DNA of 44,589 bases from Chitinophagaceae bacterium (GCA_036524255.1 DATDCP010000463.1:1-44589), one strand, 5' to 3'; shown: positions 21,000 to 37,518, numbered from the stretch's first letter. Translations and numbers: made by a program. Notes: a model not told the origin generated them from the letters alone.

Positions 21000-21420
21000 A
21001 TATCCATGAACATATAAACTTCTTGTTCTATAATTTTCTTTCAATATTTCTTCCAAAAAAAATTATCGTTCATGTTTTTACCCTTAGTAATTTTTCTAAC
21101 CTCCGTTTAAGTAGCTTCAGAAAAAAAGTAGAACTACTACTTATAAAAAAACCTTACTCTTACGTAGAAAAATCTCTTAGAAAAACTATGAGATTTAAAA
21201 AGTGAAATATACTTTTATGCTAGTAATTAATCCGGTACCCGAGTGAGTCCTACCAAGTAACTTTCTCGGTTAAGTATCAAAAAAATTTAGTTGTAGTGTT
21301 TTAGGAAGCCATCGGGCTGAGAGGCTTTTGCTTTGATATCCGGATGAATAAAAATGTATATCGCTCAATTAAACCATACTTATTATTATTCAAAAATTAA
21401 TCACCCCTAAAAAGAAAACA

Positions 21421-21960
21421 ATGAAACATTTCTTCAAATTAACATGTGCAGCTGCAGTTCTTACAGCCGGAATTATTACTCTTTCTTCATTCAATAAAGC
21501 GAAGAAAGCAACAACAAGCGTTGATGCATACAGCATTCAACTTCTACCCACAACGGAGTCGAGCCGTGGTGCTGGTAATTATGAATGGACATGGGTTCTT
21601 ACTAATCCTAATCCGGGTAATGGTGAAAATGGAACATTACAGAACGTAAGTCATTTTGATATTGCTTTAAATGCAGTAGCAGAAGCTGCATTAGTTTCAG
21701 CAGAATACAGTTTTGATGGTATTACCTGGGTAAGCGTTCCGATTGAAATGGAACGTGATCCCGCGATCAGGGCATGTACCGGCGTTGATGTATTAAAATT
21801 CAATGCTGGAACTGTTGGTGACCAACCTACTTATTATAGAGCTACATTTGACCAGGAATTCTCTGCTAATCCATATGCAACTTCATGGATCAAAGGTGGT
21901 TCTCGTTATGGTTGTAATATGGCCTTCTTTACTGGTGTTGGTGCATCAAGTAATAACTAA
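21421..21960 (+). CDS. Small secreted protein of unknown function
   Basis: 179 aa with an N-terminal hydrophobic signal (MKHFFKLTCAAAVLTAGIITLSS) and no motif I recognise. It has its own terminator at 21981..22009. Confidence 0.65.
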   Translation: MKHFFKLTCAAAVLTAGIITLSSFNKAKKATTSVDAYSIQLLPTTESSRGAGNYEWTWVLTNPNPGNGENGTLQNVSHFDIALNAVAEAALVSAEYSFDGITWVSVPIEMERDPAIRACTGVDVLKFNAGTVGDQPTYYRATFDQEFSANPYATSWIKGGSRYGCNMAFFTGVGASSNN

Positions 21961-22009: not shown

Positions 22010-22161
22010 CAACAACACATTTTTATACAAGTGAGTCATTTTTGATCCATTTGTATTGAACTCTTAAAAAAAATTGGTGTGCTGATTTAAGCTTTGAATT
22101 AAAATAGCTTGATCATTATTATTCTCTAAGTGTTTTTTTGTAGTACCCTAAATCCGTTCAG

Positions 22162-24801
22162 ATGAAGACAACTATACCAATTATTCCCTTCAGGCCCAAT
22201 TTTAAATTTGTGCGAAACTGGTTCATTAACCTGTTTGTTGCCTCTTGGTTTCTTGTACCCACCTCGTCTTTTTCGCAGTGTACAAACTATACAGTTAATT
22301 GGGACTATCTTGATTTTTTTCATAACACACCAGGATCATGGTATTATGTTACTCCCCCAGCAGGGAGCAATCCTTTTGTTACGAACGCAATGAAGCAATC
22401 TCAAAACTTTGCCTTGGGACCAACCAATGTGCTAAATATTGCGACTTTAATTCAAGTTGCTGGAAGTGGTGTATTCTACGGTGATCTTACAAATCATTTA
22501 GGTGAGATTGCTGGATATACCGGAGCGGATGTATCGTTCACCCCAACAGCAAATGGTCAAACTATTATTTTTACTTTTTTGAATGAAGTAACAAATGCAA
22601 GTTTTACCTTATATGGTGTAGATAGACAACAGGTCATTAGTGTAGCCGCGACTAATACTGGTGGTACAGCGCAAACTGTAACAGCTGCTACCTATGCTTC
22701 CAGTATTCTAACAATTTCCGGAGCACCCGGAAAAACAATTACTGCAAGTAATACTACAAGTACGTCTCCTAGCAATACAGGTAGTGCTACTTTTACCGTC
22801 ACTACATCTGTAAAAACAATTACTTTAACTGTAAGTACCCTTGGAAGTATTCCAACATTTTGGCTTTCTGATATTATAGCTTGTTCTCCGGATCCAGGTT
22901 TTCCAACAGACTACTATAAGCCATATACGCAACCTTATACTGGTCAACCTGCTTATTTCCTCGCTAATCCGGATTTTAACCTAAATGTATATATGGTAGA
23001 TCCTGTTAACAGAACTGCCGATCTGTTATTTACTGATCCGGGTATTGGAGGCAATGCATTAAACTCAATAGCATATGACCCGGTAAATAAATATGTTTAC
23101 TATGTAATGAATGGCTCCGGTGCAGGCGCTGGCAACAGGTCACTAAAAAGATATGATGTAACTACAAACAGTATCACAACGGTTCTTGCGGATATAAATT
23201 CATTAGGAGTACCTACGTTTACGCAAGGAGTTGAAGCAGCTTCAGCTGCTTTTTATAATGGTTGTTTATACTTAGGAGTAGAAGGCTCCGAAACAGGTTC
23301 ATTTACCTCAAATACCGAGGCTATCATATGGCGAATTGATTTTAGTGGCACGACGCCCATAAGAGCTTCACAGGTTTTTGGTATGCTAAACGATGATGGT
23401 GCAGGCCAACCCAGTCATGACTGGGGAGATATTATTACTAGAGATGGCAATATAATTACACATGCGTCAACCCGACTTACACCGTCCTACCAAAGTAACT
23501 GGATCCATTTTAACATGACCACAAGCACCTCTACAAATACATATCCGGGATATGCTGATACGTCGGGACAGCTTGGTCAGATTTATGACGGCACAGTCTA
23601 TAGAGTAGATAATCAAATAGCATTATATAATAATAATGGTACGACTGCTGCAGCAAACCCAATATCAGTTACCTCTTGTTCGCCGTCCTGGAACAACAGG
23701 CCGGCAAATGATGCATCGGATCCTTTTAGACCAGCTCTTGATTTTGGAGATGCACCGGCTACTTATGACCCTGTTGCTTTATCTCCGGCTGCAAATCAAA
23801 AAGCATGTAATAACTCAACATTGAGAATAGGTTCGGCGTGGGATCGTGAATGGGTATTAGGTAGTTCATTGAATGCTACAGGAGATGGGACAGATGAAGA
23901 TGGTGTTTCTACCGTTTCTATTATGGTTGCTGATGGCATTTCATATAATCATGTACAGGAAGTAACTGTTCTGAATAATACAGGTGCTCCTGCTTATCTG
24001 GCCGGATGGCTCGACTATAATGCAAATGGGGTCTTTGATCCCTCTGAAGGAGTTGTGGTTACAGTACCAAGCAGCGCTTCACCACAAACAATAACACTTG
24101 GTTGGACTGGAATTACTATAGCACCGGGTACACCGAATAGTTTTTTACGAGTAAGGCTTTATTCCGGAGCGCTAACTACAAGCAGTGCAACAGGCTGGTT
24201 GGCTGATGGCGAAACCGAAGATTATCCTGTACTTTCTCAGGCGATGCCACTTGTTATCGAGTTACTTGATTTCACTGCAACTCTAACGAGAGATAAAAAT
24301 GTTTCATTAAACTGGAGAGCATATGTCGATGACGAAGCAAAGGGTTTTGAAATAGAAAGGAGTAAGGATCAGAATAATTGGGAAAAAATAGGAGCTGTAA
24401 ATTTAAAGACATCGAACTTTACAACAGATTATAGTTTCCTGGATCAACTACCATTACAGGGAAAATCTTATTACCGCCTGAAAATGGTGGAAAAAACAGG
24501 TTCATCAAGATACAGCAAGACAAGGCTGATACAAATTGATCAGCTTATTACAAAACTCAGGATATACCCTAACCCTGCTAAAAATGATGTTACCGTTTCA
24601 TTTAATTCTTCAATGAATCAATCAGCGACATTGATCATCAGATCAATAGCCGGAGAAGTAATGATGAGGAAATCAATCACCCTGGCTGAGACGGACAACC
24701 GGGTAAGTGTGTCAACAAATGGACTAAGCAATGGCTTATACGTTGTTGAGCTAATTACTCCCGAAAAAACATTCGTCAATAAGTTAACTGTAGCACATTA
24801 A
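22162..24801 (+). CDS. Large T9SS-secreted protein with GEVED-like domain, FN3-like module and T9SS tail
   Basis: Signal-like N-terminus, then a Thr/Ser-rich beta-rich body. DFGDAPATYDP..DEDGV..WLDYNANGVFD..GETEDYPV resembles the GEVED domain. This is followed by LNWRAYVDDEAKGFEIERSKDQNNWEKIG..YYRLKMVEKTGSSRYSK and IYPNPAKNDV..GLYVVELITPEKTFVNKLTVAH. Confidence 0.8.
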   Translation: MKTTIPIIPFRPNFKFVRNWFINLFVASWFLVPTSSFSQCTNYTVNWDYLDFFHNTPGSWYYVTPPAGSNPFVTNAMKQSQNFALGPTNVLNIATLIQVAGSGVFYGDLTNHLGEIAGYTGADVSFTPTANGQTIIFTFLNEVTNASFTLYGVDRQQVISVAATNTGGTAQTVTAATYASSILTISGAPGKTITASNTTSTSPSNTGSATFTVTTSVKTITLTVSTLGSIPTFWLSDIIACSPDPGFPTDYYKPYTQPYTGQPAYFLANPDFNLNVYMVDPVNRTADLLFTDPGIGGNALNSIAYDPVNKYVYYVMNGSGAGAGNRSLKRYDVTTNSITTVLADINSLGVPTFTQGVEAASAAFYNGCLYLGVEGSETGSFTSNTEAIIWRIDFSGTTPIRASQVFGMLNDDGAGQPSHDWGDIITRDGNIITHASTRLTPSYQSNWIHFNMTTSTSTNTYPGYADTSGQLGQIYDGTVYRVDNQIALYNNNGTTAAANPISVTSCSPSWNNRPANDASDPFRPALDFGDAPATYDPVALSPAANQKACNNSTLRIGSAWDREWVLGSSLNATGDGTDEDGVSTVSIMVADGISYNHVQEVTVLNNTGAPAYLAGWLDYNANGVFDPSEGVVVTVPSSASPQTITLGWTGITIAPGTPNSFLRVRLYSGALTTSSATGWLADGETEDYPVLSQAMPLVIELLDFTATLTRDKNVSLNWRAYVDDEAKGFEIERSKDQNNWEKIGAVNLKTSNFTTDYSFLDQLPLQGKSYYRLKMVEKTGSSRYSKTRLIQIDQLITKLRIYPNPAKNDVTVSFNSSMNQSATLIIRSIAGEVMMRKSITLAETDNRVSVSTNGLSNGLYVVELITPEKTFVNKLTVAH

Positions 24802-29410: not shown

Positions 29411-30319
29411 TCAATGAGATGTAAGAGATAAAAAGTAATCTTCCAATGAATTTTTTTTCTGAATTGAAAATATATCCTGTTTCATTTCTCCCATTTGCTG
29501 AACAAAAGCCGGCACTTCCTCTCTTTTCATTTGCATAATGATCTTTTGCCCGTTTACTGAAATGATCTTATTTGCCCAGGATGTTTGCTTCAGCAGCAAT
29601 TCAAATTCATTTGCAGATCTGGTTTCAACTTCTATTCTCGATTGTTCAGGATTCAATAATTCATTCATATTTCCCTCTGCAATTTTTTTCCCTTTATGAA
29701 TAATCAGTAATGAATCTGCTACTTGTTCCATTTCACTTAATAAATGAGAGGAAATAAATACAGTTTTTCCCAGATCCTTACTCAGGTGATTAATTAGCTG
29801 TCGTATATCGGCGATCCCTTGTGGATCCAGTCCATTCATAGGTTCATCTAAAATAATTAGATCAGGATCATGAACCAGGGCTACAGCGATCCCCAATCTT
29901 TGTTTCATTCCCTGTGAATATGTTTTTATTTTACTATCTGCTCTTTCAGCGAGGCCCACTTTCCCCAGTTTATCCATTAATTGTTTGCGTTTAAGTTTTA
30001 ATCCGCTCATTGTTGCAAACAAATTCAAGTTCTCAATTGCAGTAAGATATTTATACAGATCAGGTTTTTCAATTATGGCACCTATTCGTTGCAAAATTTC
30101 TTTTCTATGTGTGGAAAGATCAAGGTCAAAAATTCTTATTTCACCATTGGCAGGTCTAATTAAGCTCAGCAGCATTCGTATAGTAGTAGATTTTCCTGCA
30201 CCGTTTTGACCCAAAAAACCATAAACACCGTTCTCTTTTACAGTAAAAGTCAAATTATCAACTGCGATGATTTCGTTGAATGATTTCGTTAATCCACTAA
30301 CATCAATGATTGAAGACAT
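29411..30319 (-). CDS. ABC transporter ATP-binding protein (ABC-2 exporter type)
   Basis: Walker A GQNGAGKST, signature YSQGMKQRLGIA, Walker B LIILDEP, H-loop SSH. Confidence 0.92.
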   Translation of the reverse strand: MSSIIDVSGLTKSFNEIIAVDNLTFTVKENGVYGFLGQNGAGKSTTIRMLLSLIRPANGEIRIFDLDLSTHRKEILQRIGAIIEKPDLYKYLTAIENLNLFATMSGLKLKRKQLMDKLGKVGLAERADSKIKTYSQGMKQRLGIAVALVHDPDLIILDEPMNGLDPQGIADIRQLINHLSKDLGKTVFISSHLLSEMEQVADSLLIIHKGKKIAEGNMNELLNPEQSRIEVETRSANEFELLLKQTSWANKIISVNGQKIIMQMKREEVPAFVQQMGEMKQDIFSIQKKNSLEDYFLSLTSH

Positions 30320-30338
30320 ATAGTAATAGTACGAAATT

Positions 30339-30346
30339 CAAAATTA
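30339..30346 (-). promoter_or_regulatory. Candidate -7 box (TAATTTTG) for the ABC operon
   Basis: The plus-strand CAAAATTA is TAATTTTG on the minus strand, 20 nt upstream of the ATG at 30319. I found no clear -33 TTG. Confidence 0.35.
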
Positions 30347-30413
30347 GCTCAAAAATTCTTCATTGAGAATGAGTCCTTTCAAAATAAGATAACAAAAATC
30401 CCCTTGGAAAAAC

Positions 30414-30520
30414 TTGCATGCGCTGATTGCACATATTACGTTTGTGATGTCGTAGAATAATGGAAGCATCGAAGGAAAAATTACGATAAACGATCCGTTA
30501 CTAATTCAACCCTAAGGAAA
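30414..30520 (+). promoter_or_regulatory. Cassette 0 promoter plus conserved leader
   Basis: TTG at 30414..30416 and TACGTTTG at 30437..30444. The leader has ATCCGT at 30493..30498 and TCAACCCTAAGG immediately before the ATG. Confidence 0.6.
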
Positions 30521-31144
30521 ATGAAAAAAATTATTACCCTGTTATTAATTAGTTTTTCAATAACCGCTCAATCAATCAACGCACAATTAGACCTGGCTTT
30601 TGTTTCCAATTTCAGTGCTAACCCAACTAATTCCTCCAATCGACTTACCTGGACAATCGCAAGTAATCAGAGTGTGAGTAGTTTCGAAGTTGAAAAAAGC
30701 ACCAATGGAAAAGACTTTAAGACTATTGCAATATTGGAAGTAACAGAAGAATTTAATACAGAAAATTATACATATACTGATACTGCGATCAGTGCAGACA
30801 AAATAATGTATCGTCTTAGAGTATTGATCAGGAGGAGCCAGCATGATTTTTATTCAAGGATTATTATAGTCAAGTCCAAAACGAAGCTTGATGACAATAT
30901 CAGGATCATGGAAAACCCTGTAAAGGATAAGCTTTTTTTCAGTTACAATTCTGCAAAAGTGCAAGTAGCAGATATCAAAATATATAGCCTGACAGGAAAA
31001 ATTTTAGTTAATCAAAAAATAAGCAGTTTTAAAGGAAATAATTTAATAACTATTCCATTAAGCTCAGTCTTTGCACCTGGAATGTATGTGATTGAAATTA
31101 ATACTGATATTTTAAACCAAACCGCAAAATTCGTAAAACAATAA
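30521..31144 (+). CDS. 'Headless' T9SS surface protein: signal peptide + FN3-like module + T9SS tail
   Basis: 207 aa. LTWTIASNQSVSSFEVEKSTNGKDFKTIA..MYRLRVL, then ENPVKDKLFF..GMYVIEINTDILNQTAKFVKQ. It is a paralog of the tails of the next three genes. Confidence 0.8.
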   Translation: MKKIITLLLISFSITAQSINAQLDLAFVSNFSANPTNSSNRLTWTIASNQSVSSFEVEKSTNGKDFKTIAILEVTEEFNTENYTYTDTAISADKIMYRLRVLIRRSQHDFYSRIIIVKSKTKLDDNIRIMENPVKDKLFFSYNSAKVQVADIKIYSLTGKILVNQKISSFKGNNLITIPLSSVFAPGMYVIEINTDILNQTAKFVKQ

Positions 31145-31190
31145 CAGCTTTTTCATAAAATACTAATACAAGCCATTAGCCAAAAGAAAA

Positions 31191-31217
31191 AGGCCCTTTA
31201 TAAAAAGGGCCTTTTTT
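31191..31217 (+). terminator. Intrinsic terminator of cassette 0
   Basis: Stem AGGCCCTT/AAGGGCCT followed by tttttt. The stem is related to the GGCCC stems ending the 3' elements. Confidence 0.8.
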
Positions 31218-31425
31218 ATGTACAAACAGATCTAGCAACAAATACATGCTCTACACATAAACACAAGATCATCATTTGTGAATGCAGTTGAATAATTCGT
31301 TGATCTACGAACTGCAATGATAAAAGACATAAAGTAATTATACTAAGTTCAAAATTAGTTTTAAAAAAAACATTATTGAAAATGAAACTATTGAGATCTT
31401 ACTTAAAAAAAACCCGTAGAAAAAC

Positions 31426-31607
31426 TTGCAACAATTAAATGTGCATATTACGTTTGTGTCAGCGTAAGAACAATCCAAAGTATCCACGAAAAACAACGAT
31501 AAGCAATCCGTACTGATACCTCTTCTAAAAGAACCATTTTCCGGTAACATTACGGCTGCTTCAAAAAATTCGAAAAATCGATCCGTTTAATATTCAACCC
31601 TAAGAAA
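31426..31607 (+). promoter_or_regulatory. Cassette A promoter plus ~150-nt conserved leader
   Basis: TTG at 31426..31428 and TACGTTTG at 31449..31456. AATCCGT at 31505..31511 and ATCCGT at 31581..31586. Stem CCGTACTGATACC (31508..31520) with GGTAACATTACGG (31543..31555). TCAACCCTAAG lies before the ATG. Confidence 0.6.
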
Positions 31608-32726
31608 ATGAAAAAGATCTTTACCCTTTGCACCCTTGTAACATTGTCACTTTTTGCGAATAACTCATATTCGCAGATTAATGTAAACTTTGATAATGGG
31701 TTTGCCCCCCTTCAAGCCGATTGCTGGCAGTTCACTAACATGATGCATGCAACCACCCCTTCCGGTTATGTTATTAATGGGAATGGAAGTGCATACTCAG
31801 AGCCACCAGTAAGTTCCGACAGTTTACGTATTATGCGTACACCGTTCCTCGATTTTGGAACTGTTGTCGATGTATCTTTTGTTTACAGAATTAGCAGCAA
31901 TCTAAATGGCCTTGCAACAAGGTTTATAAAACTTGACCTGGTGAATTCTGCAGGAGTAGTTGTTCAGACTCTTGACAGCTTTAACATCAGTAATGCCGCT
32001 ACAACTTCTACTTTATACAGCCAGACGTTTGCGGTTAATACTCCAGGTATGTATAGATTTTCTCTTACCATGGGTGGAAAAACAGGAGCTGGTAATGTAA
32101 GAACATCAATTGATGATCTAAATGTAAATGCCCCGGTAATAGGCTGTGACGCTGTCGAAGTAAACAAGGTATTGCCTGTTCATCTTATCGCTTTCCAGGG
32201 TAACCTTAATAAGAATAATAAAGTAACTCTTAACTGGACTGTTGCTGATAATGAGATCGCCGGAAATTTTGAAGTAGAAAGAAGTTTTAACGGAAGAGAT
32301 TTTACAACGGTTGGTTTTGTATTTGCTTCTGAAAAAATGGGAACTGAAAACTATATGTTTTATGAAACAATAAGTGGTACAGATAAAGTGATGTATCGTC
32401 TTAAAATGATCGATAAACATCATGAAGTTAGTTATTCAAGAATACTGATCTTCCAGTTGAAATCTACGACCACTAATAATATCAAGATCATCGGTAACCC
32501 TGTAAACGATAAACTTACTTTCAGCTACACTTCTGCAGGCACACAAATGGTTGATGTAAAAGTTTACGATATAAGTGGCAGAATATTATTAAATAATAAA
32601 GTAAATAGCCTGGAAGGCAGCAACGTGATAAGCCTGCCATTAAGTTCAACTTTCAAGGCTGGTATGTATGTGGTAGAAGTAAATAACGGAACCGAAGTTC
32701 ATTCATCAAAATTTGTAAAGCAATAA
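31608..32726 (+). CDS. T9SS surface protein with ~170-aa beta-rich head + shared FN3-like/T9SS tail
   Basis: Signal peptide ..LFANNSYSQ and a head of unknown family. The tail is almost identical to that of the next gene. Confidence 0.85.
   Translation: MKKIFTLCTLVTLSLFANNSYSQINVNFDNGFAPLQADCWQFTNMMHATTPSGYVINGNGSAYSEPPVSSDSLRIMRTPFLDFGTVVDVSFVYRISSNLNGLATRFIKLDLVNSAGVVVQTLDSFNISNAATTSTLYSQTFAVNTPGMYRFSLTMGGKTGAGNVRTSIDDLNVNAPVIGCDAVEVNKVLPVHLIAFQGNLNKNNKVTLNWTVADNEIAGNFEVERSFNGRDFTTVGFVFASEKMGTENYMFYETISGTDKVMYRLKMIDKHHEVSYSRILIFQLKSTTTNNIKIIGNPVNDKLTFSYTSAGTQMVDVKVYDISGRILLNNKVNSLEGSNVISLPLSSTFKAGMYVVEVNNGTEVHSSKFVKQ
32171..32726 (+). repeat. Copy 1 of a 556-bp near-identical direct repeat (partner at 34474..35029)
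   Basis: Both copies run from ATTGCCTGTTCATCTTAT.. to the stop codon with no indels. By eye I count roughly 20 substitutions. Confidence 0.9.
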
Positions 32727-32799
32727 AACATTATTAACTCAATTAACTTTTCATTTCTTAGATAATACTTCTATTTCATTGAAAAAAATCGAATTGAAT

Positions 32800-32829
32800 A
32801 AAAGCCGAAAAAAATTCGGCTTTTATTTT
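32800..32829 (+). terminator. Intrinsic terminator of cassette A, inside a 126-nt insertion
   Basis: Stem AAAGCCGAA/TTCGGCTTT followed by tattttaaaa. Confidence 0.75.
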
Positions 32830-32852
32830 AAAAAAAGAAATTAAATGTTCAA

Positions 32853-33036
32853 ACAAGCCATCTTCCCGAAATCTGGAGGGAGCAAAGGAAGATAGGAACA
32901 AGCAATCCTCGTCAATCAAAAAGATCTCCTGATACTAAGTCAAAGATTCTGACGACTGGTTAAACCCTTGAAAAATTTTCATACACTTAGAGTATCAACG
33001 GAGACGGGCCCTATTTCTATAGGGCCTTTTTTATTT
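32853..33036 (+). ncRNA. Conserved structured 3' element, copy A (candidate 3'-UTR-derived or stand-alone small RNA), ending in an intrinsic terminator
   Basis: Nearly identical to 35038..35220. Hairpin ATCTTCC/GGAAGAT; long-range helix TCTCC-TGATAC-TAAG with CTTA-(GA)-GTATCA-(AC)-GGAGA; terminator GGCCCTAT ttct ATAGGGCC + tttttt at 33007..33036. Confidence 0.45.
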
Positions 33037-33238
33037 ATAATAGATCAGGACAAAAGAACATATCTTCTTTACAATAAAAATCAGATCATTATTTGTGTTG
33101 CCTGTTGAATGATTTTTTAATACACATCTTAAATGTTACAAGACTTAAGCATTAGACTAAGTTCTAAAATTTGTTTTAAAAAAATTTGTTGAAAATGAGT
33201 CTATTGAAATTTTACTTGAAAAAAACCCTTAGAAAAAG

Positions 33239-33412
33239 TTGCAACAATTAAATGTGTGTATTACGTTTGTATCAGCGTAAAGAATCCACCGATCCCCGAA
33301 AAACTCCGATAAGTAATCCGTACTGATACCTCCTCTAAAAAAAATTTCCCGGTAACATTACGGTAGCTTCTAAAGTTAGACACAACAATCCGTCATACAT
33401 CAACCCTAAGAA
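33239..33412 (+). promoter_or_regulatory. Cassette B promoter plus ~140-nt conserved leader
   Basis: TTG at 33239..33241 and TACGTTTG at 33262..33269. AATCCGT at 33315..33321 and 33387..33393. Stem 33318..33330 with 33351..33363. TCAACCCTAAG lies before the ATG. Confidence 0.6.
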
Positions 33413-35029
33413 ATGAAAAAGATTTTTACACTTTCCGTTCTTGCCATCTCTGCCACCTTCTTAAATGCGCAGGTAGTACTTAACGAGATCTATACCGATC
33501 CAGGTAATGGCAAAAATGAATTCTTTGAATTCTACAATACAAGTTCAGACCCTGTACCACAAAACATGGACAACTATACCTTGGTAGCTTATTATGAGGA
33601 ACCAGGTAAAACTGGTTTCTACGTATTGGATCTTCCCAATCAAACAGTAGCTTCTAAAGGTTTTTATGTAGGTTCATCTGCAAACCCATTTAAAGTGCAG
33701 GGACAGACAAATGTTGCAGCGGATTTTGTATGGAACGCAATTCCTGCCGGTGGTTACCTGAAAAAATTCGAAAGATCAGGAGCTATTTACACTGAGGTCG
33801 CTGTTCCTGCAAACCTTAATGATCTTTTTGTGGCACGTTCTGGCACGGGTTGCATACAACATATTTTAGTTTTCCAAAATGGATTACTTATTAATGGAAT
33901 TGTTACGGGAACAAATTTTGCCATTTTGCCAACTTATCTTAAAACAATGCCCCCATTGTTTGTAGATATGAGCGGTGCTTCAATAGACTTTACAGTAAAT
34001 TTTAATTCTTTTAATGATAACCAGTTCGAATATGTGAATTCAGCTGCAGGTAATGACAATGGCTATATGCGTCTTAGCGATGGTAAGTGTGGTGTATGGG
34101 CTAAAAGTAGCTCTGCGGTAAATCATACTCCCGGTCAATCAAATGGATCGGCTTCTGGTTCAGCCGGAGATCTTTCGATCAGCAACTACATTACTGAATT
34201 AGAAAGCGATTTTACGAAATCCTTGTTAGTGTATAATGTCACTTCCACAACCTTATCAGCGTTCCCGGTTACAATCCAGGTATATGAAGACTTGGGAATA
34301 ATAGGACAATTGGATGCGGCTGATCTAATAGTCGATTCAAGAGTGCTTTATACTTTAACTGAAGGTGACCAGTTTGTGATCATACCTTCCAGAACTTATC
34401 CGGCAATTATTGTTGCAAGAACTCCTTCGGGATGCTTTGACCAGGTTATTGCAGTACCTAATAGCTTAAAGCTATTGCCTGTTCATCTTATTGCTTTCCA
34501 GGGAAACCTTAATAAGAATAATAAAGTAACTCTTAACTGGACTATTGCTGATAATGAGATCGCCAACAATTTTGAAGTAGAAAGAAGTTTTAACGGAAGA
34601 GACTTTACAACGGTTGGTGTTGTATTCGCTTCTGAAAAAATGGGAACTGAAAACTATATGTTTTATGAAACAACAACTGGTACAGATAAAGTGATGTATC
34701 GTCTTAAAATGATCGATAAACATCATGAAGTTAATTATTCAAGAATACTGATCTTCCAGTTGAAATCTACGACCACTAATAATATCAAGATCATTGGTAA
34801 CCCTGTAAACGATAAACTTACTTTTAGCTACACTTCTGCAGGCACACAAATGGTTGATGTAAAAGTTTACGATATAAGTGGCAGAGTATTATTAAATAAT
34901 AAAGTAAACAGCCTGGAAGGCAGCAACGTGATAAGCTTACCACTAAATTCAACTTTCAAGGCTGGTATGTATGTGGTAGAAGTAAATAACGGAACCGAAC
35001 TTCAATCATCAAAATTTGTAAAGCAATAA
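33413..35029 (+). CDS. T9SS surface protein with lamin-tail-domain (LTD)-like head + shared FN3-like/T9SS tail
   Basis: The signal peptide is followed by VVLNEIYTDPGNGKNEFFEFYNTSSDPVPQNMDNYTLVAYY, an LTD-type pattern. The tail LNWTIADNEIANNFEVERSFNGRDF..YRLKMIDKHHEV.. GNPVNDKLTF..GMYVVEVNNGTELQSSKFVKQ completes the protein. Confidence 0.85.
   Translation: MKKIFTLSVLAISATFLNAQVVLNEIYTDPGNGKNEFFEFYNTSSDPVPQNMDNYTLVAYYEEPGKTGFYVLDLPNQTVASKGFYVGSSANPFKVQGQTNVAADFVWNAIPAGGYLKKFERSGAIYTEVAVPANLNDLFVARSGTGCIQHILVFQNGLLINGIVTGTNFAILPTYLKTMPPLFVDMSGASIDFTVNFNSFNDNQFEYVNSAAGNDNGYMRLSDGKCGVWAKSSSAVNHTPGQSNGSASGSAGDLSISNYITELESDFTKSLLVYNVTSTTLSAFPVTIQVYEDLGIIGQLDAADLIVDSRVLYTLTEGDQFVIIPSRTYPAIIVARTPSGCFDQVIAVPNSLKLLPVHLIAFQGNLNKNNKVTLNWTIADNEIANNFEVERSFNGRDFTTVGVVFASEKMGTENYMFYETTTGTDKVMYRLKMIDKHHEVNYSRILIFQLKSTTTNNIKIIGNPVNDKLTFSYTSAGTQMVDVKVYDISGRVLLNNKVNSLEGSNVISLPLNSTFKAGMYVVEVNNGTELQSSKFVKQ
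34474..35029 (+). repeat. Copy 2 of the 556-bp near-identical direct repeat (partner at 32171..32726)
   Basis: See copy 1. The encoded tails differ at about ten amino-acid positions. Confidence 0.9.
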
Positions 35030-35037
35030 CCTTAATA

Positions 35038-35220
35038 ACAAGCCATCTTCCCGAAATCTGGAGGGAGCAAAGGAAGATAGTACAAGCAATCCTCGTCAAT
35101 CAAAAAGATCTCCTGATACTAGCCAAAGATTCTGACGACCGGTTAAAACCTTAAAGATTTTCATACACTTAGAGTATCAACGGAGACGGGCCCTATTTCT
35201 ATAGGGCCTTTTTATTTTTT
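35038..35220 (+). ncRNA. Conserved structured 3' element, copy B, starting 9 nt after the stop codon and ending in an intrinsic terminator
   Basis: Same helices as copy A. The terminator stem is 35189..35196 with 35201..35208, followed by a T-run to 35220. Confidence 0.45.
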
Positions 35221-35272
35221 ACGTTTAAACACAAAAAAAGACAGTGTATCGTAGTTTTTCATCGCATATTGC

Positions 35273-35469
35273 TTGCTTTCCCAATAAACACGTAGTAGAT
35301 TTGTTAAGAAGATTTCGTCAAATATCCGACGTAAAAACCATCTAAGATAATCCGTACTGATACTCACTCTAGAAACAATTCCTTTTCATTACGGCATTTT
35401 CAGCTGGTGGTTAAGATCAGAGATCATTAGACCTTTTTAATCCGTTTTTGATAATTCAACCCTAAGGAA
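35273..35469 (+). promoter_or_regulatory. Cassette C promoter plus ~165-nt leader
   Basis: TTG at 35273..35275 and TAGATTTG at 35296..35303. AATCCGT at 35349..35355 and 35439..35445. Stem CCGTACTG (35352..35359) with CATTACGG (35387..35394). TTCAACCCTAAGG lies before the ATG. Confidence 0.55.
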
Positions 35470-37089
35470 ATGAAAAAATTTTTTACTCTTTGTGTGCTAA
35501 TATGCATTGTGATCGTATCAAGATCCCAGGCTGTATTAAACGAGGTTTACCCGCAACCTGGAAACGGTTATCATGAATTCTTCGAGCTTTACAACGAATC
35601 TGACACTGCTGAAAATCTAGATAATTATACAGTTGTCATTTATTATGAAGAAGGGACTACATCCGGATTCTATGTACTTGATCTTCCTACCGCATCTGTA
35701 GCAGCACATGGTTATTATGTAGGCGCTTCGCAAACTTCTTTTGATATTCAGGCTCAGCTGGGGCAAACCGCAAATTTCAGTTGGAACTCAATGCCTGCTG
35801 GTGGTTCATTAACGAAATGGCAAAAGAATGGATCTTCTTATACATCAGTTGCAGTACCTGCAAACCTTAATGATCTTTTAGTAAAAATTAATGGTGGTGG
35901 TGGTGGTGTATTTCATGTTTTTGTTTATAAAAATGGAATTATAGTAAATGGTCTCATTGGAGGTATTAGCACAAGCGTTGTACCGGCTTATATAAAAACA
36001 ATGCCGAATTTACCTGTCGATATGAGTGGCAGTTCACCTGACTTTATTATCAACTTCAATACTACCGCTGATAACAGTTTAGAATACCTGACTAATTCCG
36101 TAGGTACAAACAATGGTTACTTCCGCAGTTCTGATGGATTATGTGGTGATTGGTTAAAAAGTGATTCTCCGGGACAACATACACCGGGAGCAACAAATGG
36201 CGCATCACTAAGTTTAATTTCTTCAAACCAATTTTCAATTGGGGCTGTTATATCTGCTTACACCTTTGATCTAAGCAAATCTCTGCTCACTTATAATATA
36301 TCATCAGCTCCTGCAGGTGCCTTTCCTCTTACAGTTGAGATATATGCTGATCTCGGTATTGCGAGTGAATGGGATATAAACGACAGCCTTATTGATTTGA
36401 GAACCATCCTCAGTGCATCTTCCGGTAACCAGGATATAGTATTATCATCATTAAATACTGCTGTAATTGTTGTTGTAAAATCAGCAAATGATTGTTATAA
36501 CAAAAATCTTCCCGTTGCAAGCTATTTGTCAGTATTACCAGTTGAGTTGATCAGCTTCCAGGGCAACATAAACAAAAGCAATAAGGTATCACTTGAATGG
36601 AAAGTGATGAGTAATGAAACAATTGATCGTTTTGAAATACAAAGGAGCTATGATGGGAATGAATTTAAAACAATTGGAATCGTATTTGCAAGCGAGAAAA
36701 AAGATAATGAAGACTACATGTTCTATGAAACGATCAACAGTTTTGATAAAGCAATGTATCGTCTTAAAATGATTGACAAGAACAATAAGGTCACTTACTC
36801 CAAAATATTGGTGTTTCAGTCAAAAGCTGCAACTACCAGCAATATCAAGATCATCGGAAACCCTGTGAATGATAAACTCACCTTCAATTATTCATCTTTT
36901 ACAGAACAGGTAATTAATGTAAAGATTTATGACATGACAGGCAGGGTTATCATGAGCAATAAAATAAATAGCCTTGAAGGAAGTAATACTATATGTTTTC
37001 CTTTGGCCTCAAATTTTAAAACGAATATGTATGTACTAGAAGTAAGTAATGGATCTGATATTCAAACAGCAAAATTCATAAAGCAATAA
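35470..37089 (+). CDS. T9SS surface protein with LTD-like head (diverged paralog) + FN3-like/T9SS tail
   Basis: AVLNEVYPQPGNGYHEFFELYNESDTAENLDNYTVVIYY. The tail is LEWKVMSNETIDRFEIQRSYDGNEF..YRLKMIDKNNKV..GNPVNDKLTF..MYVLEVSNGSDIQTAKFIKQ. Confidence 0.85.
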   Translation: MKKFFTLCVLICIVIVSRSQAVLNEVYPQPGNGYHEFFELYNESDTAENLDNYTVVIYYEEGTTSGFYVLDLPTASVAAHGYYVGASQTSFDIQAQLGQTANFSWNSMPAGGSLTKWQKNGSSYTSVAVPANLNDLLVKINGGGGGVFHVFVYKNGIIVNGLIGGISTSVVPAYIKTMPNLPVDMSGSSPDFIINFNTTADNSLEYLTNSVGTNNGYFRSSDGLCGDWLKSDSPGQHTPGATNGASLSLISSNQFSIGAVISAYTFDLSKSLLTYNISSAPAGAFPLTVEIYADLGIASEWDINDSLIDLRTILSASSGNQDIVLSSLNTAVIVVVKSANDCYNKNLPVASYLSVLPVELISFQGNINKSNKVSLEWKVMSNETIDRFEIQRSYDGNEFKTIGIVFASEKKDNEDYMFYETINSFDKAMYRLKMIDKNNKVTYSKILVFQSKAATTSNIKIIGNPVNDKLTFNYSSFTEQVINVKIYDMTGRVIMSNKINSLEGSNTICFPLASNFKTNMYVLEVSNGSDIQTAKFIKQ

Positions 37090-37099
37090 AAATATTTAA

Positions 37100-37236
37100 G
37101 AGCACATCCGTACCGTCAAACAAAGTCTCCCGATACTAAGCCAAAGAATCTGTAGATTGGTTAAACCCTTGAAGTATTTCATACACTTAGAGTATCAACG
37201 GAGACGGGCCCTATTTCCATAGGGCCTTTTTTATTT
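37100..37236 (+). ncRNA. Conserved structured 3' element, copy C (lacks the first hairpin), ending in an intrinsic terminator
   Basis: Has ATCCGT at 37106..37111 and the long-range helix TCTCC-CGATAC-TAAG with CTTAGAGTATCAACGGAGA. The terminator is GGCCCTAT ttcc ATAGGGCC + T-run, and the T-run overlaps the stop of the convergent wHTH gene. Confidence 0.4.
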
Positions 37237-37518
37237 TTGTGTAAGGTAAGCCTGCAGATTTTTTACATACTCTTCGAATGCTTTGATCCCGATTGACGTT
37301 ATTTTACAAATTGTTTGAGGATAATTGTCTTTAAATTGTTTTATTACCTCGATATAACCTACTTCTTTTAATTTTTGAATTTGCACACTTAGGTTTCCGG
37401 CTGTGGCATTTGTGTTTTCCTTTAAAAAAGTAAACTCTGCTTCTTTTACACTTATAAGAAGTGACATCACAGCCAATCGTAGTTGAGAATGCAATATGGG
37501 ATCAAGATCTTTAAACAT
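37231..37518 (-). CDS. Small winged-helix transcriptional regulator (HTH_34/ArsR-MarR-like)
   Basis: 95 aa. LDPILHSQLRLAVMSLLISVKEAEFTFLKENTNATAGNLSVQIQKLKEVGYIEV is a typical wHTH pattern. It overlaps the upstream gene by 8 nt. Confidence 0.75.
   Translation of the reverse strand: MFKDLDPILHSQLRLAVMSLLISVKEAEFTFLKENTNATAGNLSVQIQKLKEVGYIEVIKQFKDNYPQTICKITSIGIKAFEEYVKNLQAYLTQK

Follow-up and report, generated by a model that had tools for sequence, protein, structure and literature searches.

A conserved long leader and a matched 3' UTR element in an array of predicted type IX secretion cargo genes of soil Chitinophagaceae: a candidate module for translational control

[quoted passage not shown] As judged from comparison with relatives, the leaders of these genes are genuine long 5' untranslated regions (UTRs) with a family-specific cis-acting RNA module under selection, the regulatory role of which is itself predicted: the module probably controls translation, perhaps by pairing with a conserved element in the 3' UTRs of the same messages. 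In terms of sequence, the leaders make up a new lineage-restricted family, which occurs in soil Chitinophagaceae, serves one T9SS cargo family, is accompanied by a matched 3' UTR element, and has no Rfam entry. In the literature on T9SS genes or on this protein family, a description of such a leader was not found.

Layout of the leaders

Genes 0 (30521-31144, 207 aa), A (31608-32726, 372 aa), B (33413-35029, 538 aa), and C (35470-37089, 539 aa) all lie on the plus strand, as do their promoters, leaders, and 3' elements described below. The motifs, promoters, and stem that the original prediction had observed at these genes were confirmed. The full-length leaders open with a 5' block (GUAUCC, CGAAAAAC); CGAUAAGCAAUCCGU then leads into an irregular hairpin, which is followed by a linker rich in A, by a proximal (A)AUCCGU, and by UUCAACCCUAAG(R)AA-AUGAAAAAG. 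The UUCAACCCUAAG box adjoins AUGAAAAA, and AAA or GAA precedes the AUG. Leader A (31462-31607) contains the 5' block with both of its motifs, a distal AATCCGT at 31505, the proximal ATCCGT at 31581-31586, and the box at 31594-31604. In leader B (33275-33412), the hairpin at 33311-33369 is followed by the proximal ATCCGT at 33388-33393 and the box at 33400-33410, and the corresponding motifs of leader C (35309-35469) lie at 35440-35445 and 35456-35466. Leader 0 (30450-30520) is of a short type lacking the hairpin, with ATCCGT at 30493-30498 and TCAACCCTAAG at 30506-30516 ahead of the ATG at 30521, and corresponds to leader A from which the stretch separating the two AATCCGT repeats has been taken out.

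The box TCAACCCTAAG was shown to occur exactly four times in the 44.6-kb window (at 30506, 31594, 33400, and 35456), each copy ending 2-4 nt before an ATG, and four matches were reached by none of 100 shuffles even when one mismatch was allowed. The proximal ATCCGT lies 25-30 nt before the ATG in 4/4 leaders as had been proposed, and every copy previously assigned to leaders 0, A, B, and C, together with that at 37106, was recovered. Across the whole window ATCCGT is not enriched (13 copies versus 12 ± 3 expected); eight of the 13 copies lie on the plus strand between 30493 and 37111. Neither an upstream open reading frame (ORF) nor a leader peptide was found: leader A contains no ATG, and on the minus strand none of the four leaders is overlapped by an ORF of 80 aa or more.

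Promoters and transcription

Each leader is preceded by a predicted promoter of the overall form TTGC-N20-TA(CG/GA)TTTG, with TTGC opening all four copies (30414, 31426, 33239, and 35273). The -7 box is TACGTTTG in the promoters of genes 0 (30414-30444, kept in relatives), A (31426-31456), and B (33239-33269), and TAGATTTG in that of gene C (35273-35303). The four near-consensus Bacteroidota promoters of the original prediction were thus all found in the form described, TTG plus TAnnTTTG, and their positions were mostly at least 85-95% conserved in 74 leaders; by sequence they qualify as predicted housekeeping-sigma promoters of Bacteroidota, for which TTG at -33 and, after a gap of about 19-21 nt, TAnnTTTG at -7 are expected, with conservation in orthologues. 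In all four genes, the promoter copy is the sole plus-strand TAnnTTTG between the upstream gene and the ATG. The proposal of long leaders hinged on transcription not starting near the ATG, and no alternative TAnnTTTG promoter was found closer to any of the start codons. The distances from the -7 box to the ATG were 76, 151, 143, and 166 nt for leaders 0, A, B, and C, in good agreement with the predicted leader lengths of about 75, 150, 140, and 165 nt, which gives leaders of about 70-160 nt. Since the median 5' UTR in Bacteroidota is 24-32 nt (PMC9723704), the array leaders are indeed unusually long for the phylum, as had been supposed.

A sigma-70 promoter scan remained at chance (29 sites versus 25.6 expected), the scan model not being of the Bacteroidota promoter type. 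TAnnTTTG itself was depleted across the window (34 copies versus 63 ± 8 expected, all 100 shuffles being higher), which fits selection against spurious promoters. Separately from the leader, a TTATTGAAAATGA box was observed about 40 nt upstream of the -33 element (31374-31387, 30361-30374, and 33186-33199); it is 85-95% conserved in the 74 leaders and is a candidate transcription-factor or UP-like site.

Low-depth metatranscriptome contigs of relatives were shown to span the leaders, with coverage that begins 72 to 160 nt upstream of the start codon. Those over leader A begin at 31448, 31475, 31480, and 31536, and one over leader B begins at 33297; none reaches upstream of the -7 box, and one starts 12-14 nt upstream of the predicted start site. 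These contigs are consistent with the predicted starts and do not amount to proof, as contig ends need not be true 5' ends and DNA carry-over is possible.

Conservation of the leaders among relatives

Relatives were collected by two pattern scans. That of genome contigs was too permissive, about 100 of the 118 stretches returned being chance matches, and the true ones were chosen by context; it provided 14 loci in Chitinophagaceae or Bacteroidota metagenome-assembled genomes (MAGs), where the match is followed by RAAATGAAAAA. The metagenome scan yielded 120 soil or rhizosphere contigs. Pooling of both gave 163 occurrences of the box; the regions upstream of it came in 129 distinct versions and the leaders with a promoter in 118, with promoter-to-ATG distances falling into three classes of about 75, 140-160, and 160-193 nt. 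The family C-terminal region was identified in 102 of the 120 complete downstream ORFs, most of the others being chance pattern matches or frameshifted fragments, and within the sampled loci the box was practically confined to the array protein family. It should be noted that the box served as search bait, whereas the hairpin 5' arm, the promoter, and the 3' element did not; the apparent invariance of the box is therefore inflated. When only the 41 related leaders not needed to bring their locus into the sample were considered, the exact 11-mer was found in 25, the others being 1-2 nt off. The box described as invariant at every ATG thus proved to be so in the window (4/4), and in the family as a whole it is not.

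In orthologue pairs whose 4-fold degenerate sites were 45-65% identical, identity was 66-81% in the leaders, 79-87% in the promoters, and 61-74% in the region upstream of -33 including the TTATTGAAAATGA box. Conservation of the leader thus persists at orthologous loci across many related species, on which the original prediction had staked its idea, and on this comparison, together with the low-depth contigs, the leader appears to be a transcribed 5' UTR conserved beyond neutral expectation. ATCCGT was the most recurrent 6-mer within the relatives' leaders, at least two copies being present in 77 of the 118 distinct ones, and the proximal copy was found to vary (ATCCAT, ATCTGT, TTCGCG).

Two side observations concern leader types. 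Most type C leaders of relatives (lineages L045, L060, L081, and others in our own numbering) have an extra 24-27 nt (UUUUAUCCAAUAAUCCUGGGGAAACUUAA) inserted after the second hairpin and ahead of the proximal AUCCGU, an insertion that window leader C lacks (about 35428). Another family of small proteins (about 128 aa, MKKNFTCTLICLFGF…), encoded in L122, L140, L149, and L169, has the same TTCAACCCTAAG box, with the full long leader in L140; a BLAST match of this family to the C-terminal region of the array family was not found.

The leader hairpin

The hairpin of leader A (31501-31561) is composed of P1 (AAGCA/UGCUU), P2 (CCGUA/UACGG), and P3 (UGAUACC/GGUAACA), and closes on a loop of about 22 nt with conserved CUCUAAAA and UUUCCC. 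The stem noted earlier is present as described in leaders A (31508-31520/31543-31555) and B (33318-33330/33351-33363) and in shortened form in leader C (35352-35359/35387-35394), and the hairpin proved larger than first noted, the outer helix AAGCA/UGCUU extending the stem. In leader C, an outer helix CCAUC/GGUGG (35338-35342/35406-35410) surrounds the shortened hairpin (35352-35394); in type C leaders generally this enclosing helix is seen, with no covariation. A covariance model of the hairpin matched only three leaders in the window (A, E = 4e-24; B, E = 1e-24; C, E = 2e-14). It did not match the 3' elements described below, and thus a homology between the leader hairpin and the 3' element is only an impression from motif similarity.

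Among 108 distinct sequences, 82% of the cells were paired, versus 27-40% in slid-partner controls, and the covariation score was above all shuffles (0/500 exceeding), a result inflated by the relatedness of the sequences. Double changes were confined to the outer helix and represent about 4-5 independent compensatory events (pair 8-74 being GC 65, AU 25, and GU 9, and pair 9-73 including AU 5); single lineages show two compensatory pairs (L156), two flipped pairs (L128), and a C-G to A-U exchange (the L199 group). The covariance check proposed for the stem thus returned modest compensatory change in the outer helix and none in the inner helices, which were too invariant to show any. The hairpin 5' arm CCGUACUGAUAC is nearly invariant, the 3' arm is variable (GGUAACAUUACGG, UGUAUCAAUACGG, UUUAUCAUUACGG), and the arm spacing ranges from about 16 to 31 nt among relatives. 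In the leader stem, G-U pairs showed no excess over A-C (65 versus 55). RNAalifold recovered the hairpin, and the consensus fold of the whole leader contained that one hairpin only; close to the start site, the sole helix is UUCA/UGAA, which has 4 bp and does not vary. In single-sequence folding, the leaders were no better than shuffles (z = -0.8 to -1.4).

Because the hairpin arms can be read as one 12-mer in inverted orientation (CCGTAnTGnTAC), we considered whether these repeats and the direct repeats of ATCCGT are instead DNA operators bound by a transcription factor downstream of the start site, for example by the HTH_34 protein encoded by the convergent gene at 37231-37518, which is syntenic in distant lineages. 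The lack of a G-U excess in the stem agrees with such a reading, and the conserved TTATTGAAAATGA box upstream of -33 suggests that DNA-level regulation is also present. The arm distance of about 16 to 31 nt, however, is a misfit with fixed protein-DNA geometry, the ATCCGT copies lie at variable distances of 72-90 nt, compensatory and register-shifting changes preserve the helix, and no promoter lies anywhere near the complementary motifs of the 3' UTRs, so that operators are quite an unlikely explanation.

A riboswitch or other ligand-sensing leader appeared still less plausible, and we give it only a slender chance. The length and conservation of the 5' UTR, along with its conserved internal and terminal loops, would suit this idea. 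The RNAalifold consensus, with its single hairpin and no multi-helix junction, does not, and neither a terminator/antiterminator pair nor a covarying helix sequestering the start codon was found; the absence of a U-tract after the leader hairpin likewise indicated that there is no intrinsic attenuator or terminator there. Rfam 15 gave no match in the window at gathering thresholds, and at E <= 5 over 30300-37400 none in the leaders or in the 3' element cores, the sub-threshold matches being grouped at the gene 0 and gene A terminators or lying within coding sequence. In addition, the genes encode secreted proteins without assigned function rather than metabolic enzymes or transporters, and the hairpin is deleted in leader 0. 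As several orthologues of the 207-aa gene keep the long leader with the hairpin, the hairpin is to be regarded as an optional, dispensable module.

A companion element in the 3' UTRs

The 372-aa and approximately 540-aa genes were found to carry a 3' element of about 140-190 nt, which is not present in the 207-aa gene. The element after gene A (32856-33032) has a 5' hairpin, a long-range stem, an invariant core (32976-33005), and a terminator (33006-33027). That of gene B (35041-35213) has the invariant core UUUUCAUACACUUAGAGUAUCAACGGAGAC at 35158-35187 and a terminator at 35188-35209, and that of gene C (37093-37232) the core at 37176-37205, a terminator at 37206-37227, and ATCCGT at 37106. 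In the 77 distinct copies, which come from many species, the 5' hairpin is variable and is accompanied in each case by the long-range stem and an intrinsic terminator. The last 50 nt or so (UUUUCAUACACUUAGAGUAUCAACGGAGAC plus the terminator) showed at least 95% conservation against a background of nearly saturated synonymous sites, and the elements are far better conserved than the coding sequence; within family loci, the core was invariant in 74 of 90 pattern matches. Since the 3' element was absent from all search patterns, this invariance is unbiased. In the long stem, changes of the 5' arm against the invariant 3' arm were mostly wobble-compatible (G-U 41 versus A-C 18, a modest difference), which indicated that the 3' element is an RNA structure on the mRNA strand. 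On the 3' side, the original prediction had correctly placed ATCCGT in the element of gene C, and had missed that the 3' UTRs contain a complementary and better conserved counterpart of the leader.

Gene A has in addition a terminator-like hairpin of its own (AAAAGCCGAAAAAAATTCGGCTTTTATTTT) at 32795-32830 (about 32803-32826), before the 3' element, and no TAnnTTTG promoter precedes the element; this copy may accordingly be a separate transcription unit or need read-through. Downstream of the 542-aa gene of L095 (6620-7190), two tandem units of about 150 nt, consisting of terminator-like GAACCCGGG… hairpins and a conserved spacer, precede a standard 3' element. A leader-peptide ORF in the 3' element was rejected as a candidate, the short minus-strand ORF not being frame-conserved between copies A and B.

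Complementarity of the start regions and the 3' core

The 3' core, UUUUCAU-ACA-CUUAG-AGUAUCA-ACGGA, is collinearly complementary to the leader pieces UCCGU, CCUAAG, and AUGAAAA, the block pairs being ACGGA/UCCGU, CUUAG/CUAAG, and UUUUCAU/AUGAAAA. The core also matches the 5' arm and loop of the leader hairpin (UCCGU-ac-UGAUAC-cucc-UCUAA). Start regions of the family gave a mean of -14.2 kcal/mol against the 3' core, versus -9.5 ± 3.3 kcal/mol for 240 other start regions of the same loci, with the family median at the 6th percentile of these controls, and among 3000 random windows the hairpin 5' arm window ranked at the 2.5th percentile. The comparison among lineages is the most informative: where the 3' UTR is rearranged, condensed and contiguous anti-start sequences are retained immediately ahead of the terminator. 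UUUUCUUAGGACGGAU in L179 is the exact complement of AUCCGU plus CCUAAGAAAA, and the others are UUUUCUUAGGG (L095), UUAGGACGGA (L127), and CUUGGACGGUU (L214). When the 3' segment of a lineage was paired with its own start region, 5/8 lineages fell at the 3rd-7th percentile. Even the otherwise different 3' UTR of the 207-aa gene has GCUUUUUCAU right after the stop codon, and 14 of 22 orthologues have exact TTTTCAT in this position. In the window, gene 0 has CTTTTTCAT (31148-31156) immediately past its stop codon; this sequence is exactly complementary to AUGAAAAAG, and nothing else of the 3' element is present in that UTR.

Several observations weigh against a pairing of the two ends. Relative to dinucleotide shuffles, the duplex energies reached z = -0.3 to -2.5; a generic local-alignment scan put the start regions just 1-2 standard deviations over the window background; perfect 8-mer anti-start words were just 2.4-fold enriched in the family 3' UTRs, all three of these tests being weak; and 3/8 lineages showed no excess pairing between their own 3' segment and start region. 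Every complementarity statistic is suggestive only, as is the link between leader and 3' element, which is not established, because the sampled lineages are related, the family members are not independent observations, and the trials are not independent. Box variants (CUACG, GUAAG) occur with no mirror change in the invariant 3' core, and CUUAG and ACGGA are absent from the 3' UTR of the 207-aa gene. Nor are the UUCAACC part of the box and the same-sense AAGCAAUCC common to leader and 3' element explained by pairing. The leader stem without a G-U excess and the invariance of the box, inflated by the baited sample, belong on the same side, and the few low-depth metatranscriptome contigs over the 3' element all run past the terminator, a separate 3' fragment not being seen.

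These features that pairing leaves over, namely UUCAACC, the same-sense AAGCAAUCC in both UTRs, and the unmirrored box variants, favor the main rival explanation, in which a sequence-specific RNA-binding protein reads the repeated single-stranded (A/G)CAAUCCGU and controls translation or decay in the manner of CsrA. The motif is present in 2-3 copies per leader, one of them about 7 nt before the start-site box, with another in the 3' element, and ATCCGT ranks first among recurrent leader 6-mers as described above. AAGCAATCC is found in the same sense in leader A (31501) and in the 3' elements of A and B (32900 and 35084), a repetition that antisense pairing fails to explain, and in the hairpin 5' arm and loop it is the sequence and not the pairing that is conserved. 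Such a protein would, on the other hand, leave the complement of the leader motifs in the 3' UTRs unexplained and has to accommodate the variation of the proximal motif in relatives; no candidate for it was recognized among the neighbors of the array, which comprise an ABC transporter, a LolA-like protein, the HTH_34 protein, and unknowns. On balance we regard it as unlikely, while ranking it ahead of the other alternatives.

Read as DNA, the start region together with the 3' core amounts to an imperfect inverted repeat, which flanks each coding sequence or the promoter-bearing spacer between B and C, and the complementary blocks could also be the inverted repeats of an invertible DNA or recombination cassette, giving phase variation through site-specific inversion. 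This idea is disfavored as the least probable of all those considered, given that the repeats are short and interrupted (5 + 5 + 7 nt with unequal spacers), that genes 0 and A have the box with no upstream 3' element, and that no recombinase gene was evident among the ten flanking ORFs scanned. In contigs of four soil metagenomes holding the locus, the reference orientation alone was found, with no strand-switch joints, and DNA inversion was rejected.

Proposed mechanism

In Bacteroidia, initiation depends on mRNA structure, that is, on an unstructured start region, and on an A at -3, and not on Shine-Dalgarno pairing (PMC6847099). The box region of the array leaders, with AAA or GAA ahead of the AUG, agrees with this. 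Where initiation is tuned by local mRNA structure in this way, the open A-rich start region would be a control point. The reading that we prefer, to which we give a probability of roughly 0.4 from the sequence comparisons above, is that the anti-start-site element of the 3' UTR masks translation initiation, either in cis or as a 3'-derived small RNA. The A-rich start region would be masked by pairing with UUUUCAU-ACA-CUUAG-AGUAUCA-ACGGA, which immediately precedes the terminator in the 3' UTRs of this gene family, in cis between the 5' and 3' UTRs or in trans after the 3' end has accumulated as a small RNA shared by the paralogs. As the 3' core also matches the hairpin 5' arm and loop, the local hairpins at both ends may be competitors or decoys that set the extent of the long-range pairing. 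The pairing would repress translation or alter mRNA stability; we infer both the actual contact of the two ends and this effect. The scheme in its full extent, an array of mRNAs for T9SS-secreted proteins gated by an invariant 3' UTR element acting on UCCGU, CCUAAG, and AUGAAAA, in cis or through a shared 3' small RNA, with decoy hairpins setting the equilibrium, would be the first such translational circuit in Bacteroidota and would coordinate the paralogous cargo genes, and as a whole we consider it somewhat doubtful.

Proteins and origin of the array

The array occupies 30.4-37.3 kb of the window, between a divergent ABC transporter operon and the convergent HTH_34 gene. All four proteins (4/4) have a T9SS type A sorting domain (PF18962 / TIGR04183, Por_Secre_tail) at the C-terminus and MKK-hydrophobic N-termini, and the two largest start with a lamin-tail domain; by the C-terminal sorting domain and the N-terminal signal peptide, they are predicted T9SS cargo. 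All homologues found came from metagenomes or from MAGs with the label Chitinophagaceae, and a functional name is attached to none of them.

The sequence indicates that the cassettes descend from the tandem duplication of a unit in which the start and promoter of the divergent ABC gene survive as a relic. Between the upstream regions of the cassettes, which retain CAT and TAATTTTG relics, the similarity is 70-76%. A relic of the first codons of the ABC gene (…AGACAT…) was observed upstream of cassettes A (31300-31360) and B (33112-33170), to be compared with 30290-30350, and cassette A also retains a relic of that gene's minus-strand TAATTTTG promoter box (31350-31357); these relics mark the boundary of the duplication unit. 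Identity between genes A and B is 95% in the final 570 nt of coding sequence (32157-32726 versus 34460-35029) and likewise in their 3' elements (32856-33032 versus 35041-35213), their N-terminal domains being unrelated, which points to a recent gene conversion or segmental copy inside the array.

This history lends itself to a passive explanation, according to which the leader and 3' element merely stabilize the mRNA ends and provide an efficient A-rich start for highly expressed secreted proteins, the likeness of the paralogs being a relic of duplication or gene conversion. The tandem duplication with its ABC-gene relics, the 95% identity of the A and B ends, the dispensability of the hairpin (missing from leader 0, kept in some 207-aa orthologues), and the ordinary folding energies of the leaders are all in accord with it. 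Gene conversion, however, acts within a genome, yet the leaders surpass synonymous sites across species; likewise, the 3' core is invariant in most family-locus matches with 4-fold sites near saturation, and stabilizer hairpins normally tolerate changes that preserve pairing, whereas here the sequence itself is fixed. We therefore judge the passive explanation improbable.

The HTH_34 winged-helix gene (37231-37518, minus strand) is convergent to the last cassette and was observed at the same position in the distant lineages L110, L127, and L179, so that its product is a possible local regulator. Box-like sequences were also seen at the ATG of two other genes in the window that likely encode secreted proteins (22140-22164 and 21395-21423): that for an 879-aa GEVED/T9SS protein has GTACCCTAAATCCGTTCAGATG at the ATG with adjoining ACCCTAA and ATCCGT, and that for a 179-aa protein has CACCCCTAAAAAGAAAACAATG at the ATG.

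Comparison with known systems and implications

Pairing of the 5' and 3' UTRs that blocks initiation is established for icaR of Staphylococcus aureus (PMC3868564). The array resembles it in that a 3' UTR segment is complementary to the initiation region of the same mRNA and in that a block of the start site or altered decay is proposed. In icaR, the target is the Shine-Dalgarno sequence and RNase III is involved, whereas here the target would be the box, the start codon, and AUCCGU, and the pairing, known from sequence, is in interrupted blocks; unlike in icaR, the element is common to the whole paralog array and could therefore act in trans.

CpxQ, SroC, and DapZ are enterobacterial small RNAs derived from 3' UTRs. 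The 3' element shares with them a conserved seed directly upstream of an intrinsic terminator and a 3' part far better conserved than the rest of the UTR, and differs in that its predicted targets are the parent gene family itself and that the contigs show no separate short species; we know of no Hfq-type chaperone in Bacteroidota. Leaders controlled by CsrA/RsmA carry a repeated short GGA motif, with one copy at the ribosome-binding region and another in a hairpin. The array leaders are likewise long and repeat a short motif, with one copy beside the ribosome-binding region and one in a hairpin; the motif here is AAUCCGU in place of GGA, the distal copy is partly base-paired instead of lying in a loop, and the binding protein is hypothetical. 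Stabilizer hairpins of the ompA type stand at the 5' end of the leader of an abundant envelope protein mRNA. The array hairpin is comparable in that it, too, is part of a long leader in the mRNA for an abundant protein of the envelope or secreted type, and differs by its position about 40 nt from the 5' end, by conservation of sequence and not just of pairing, and by having been lost with no loss of the gene in leader 0. Finally, Flavo-1 is an orphan leader motif of Bacteroidota (PMC9723704) and, like the array leader, a computationally visible, lineage-restricted structured 5' UTR with no assigned function. The array leader matches no Rfam family including Flavo-1, belongs to one T9SS cargo family, and is paired with a 3' UTR element.

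To our knowledge, Bacteroidota do not have the classical Hfq and CsrA systems. Because of this and of initiation with no Shine-Dalgarno pairing, post-transcriptional control in the phylum is poorly charted. A delimited leader under selection, available in 118 versions with its hairpin and start-codon motifs, together with an invariant 3' element, provides a handle on the control of start-site access. If the two ends do not pair, the leader is still a useful new orphan RNA motif for catalogues; if they do, the logic of icaR and of 3'-derived small RNAs would be extended to a new phylum and to a start site with no Shine-Dalgarno sequence. In either case, this module may show how the expression of T9SS cargo is coordinated in abundant uncultured soil Chitinophagaceae.

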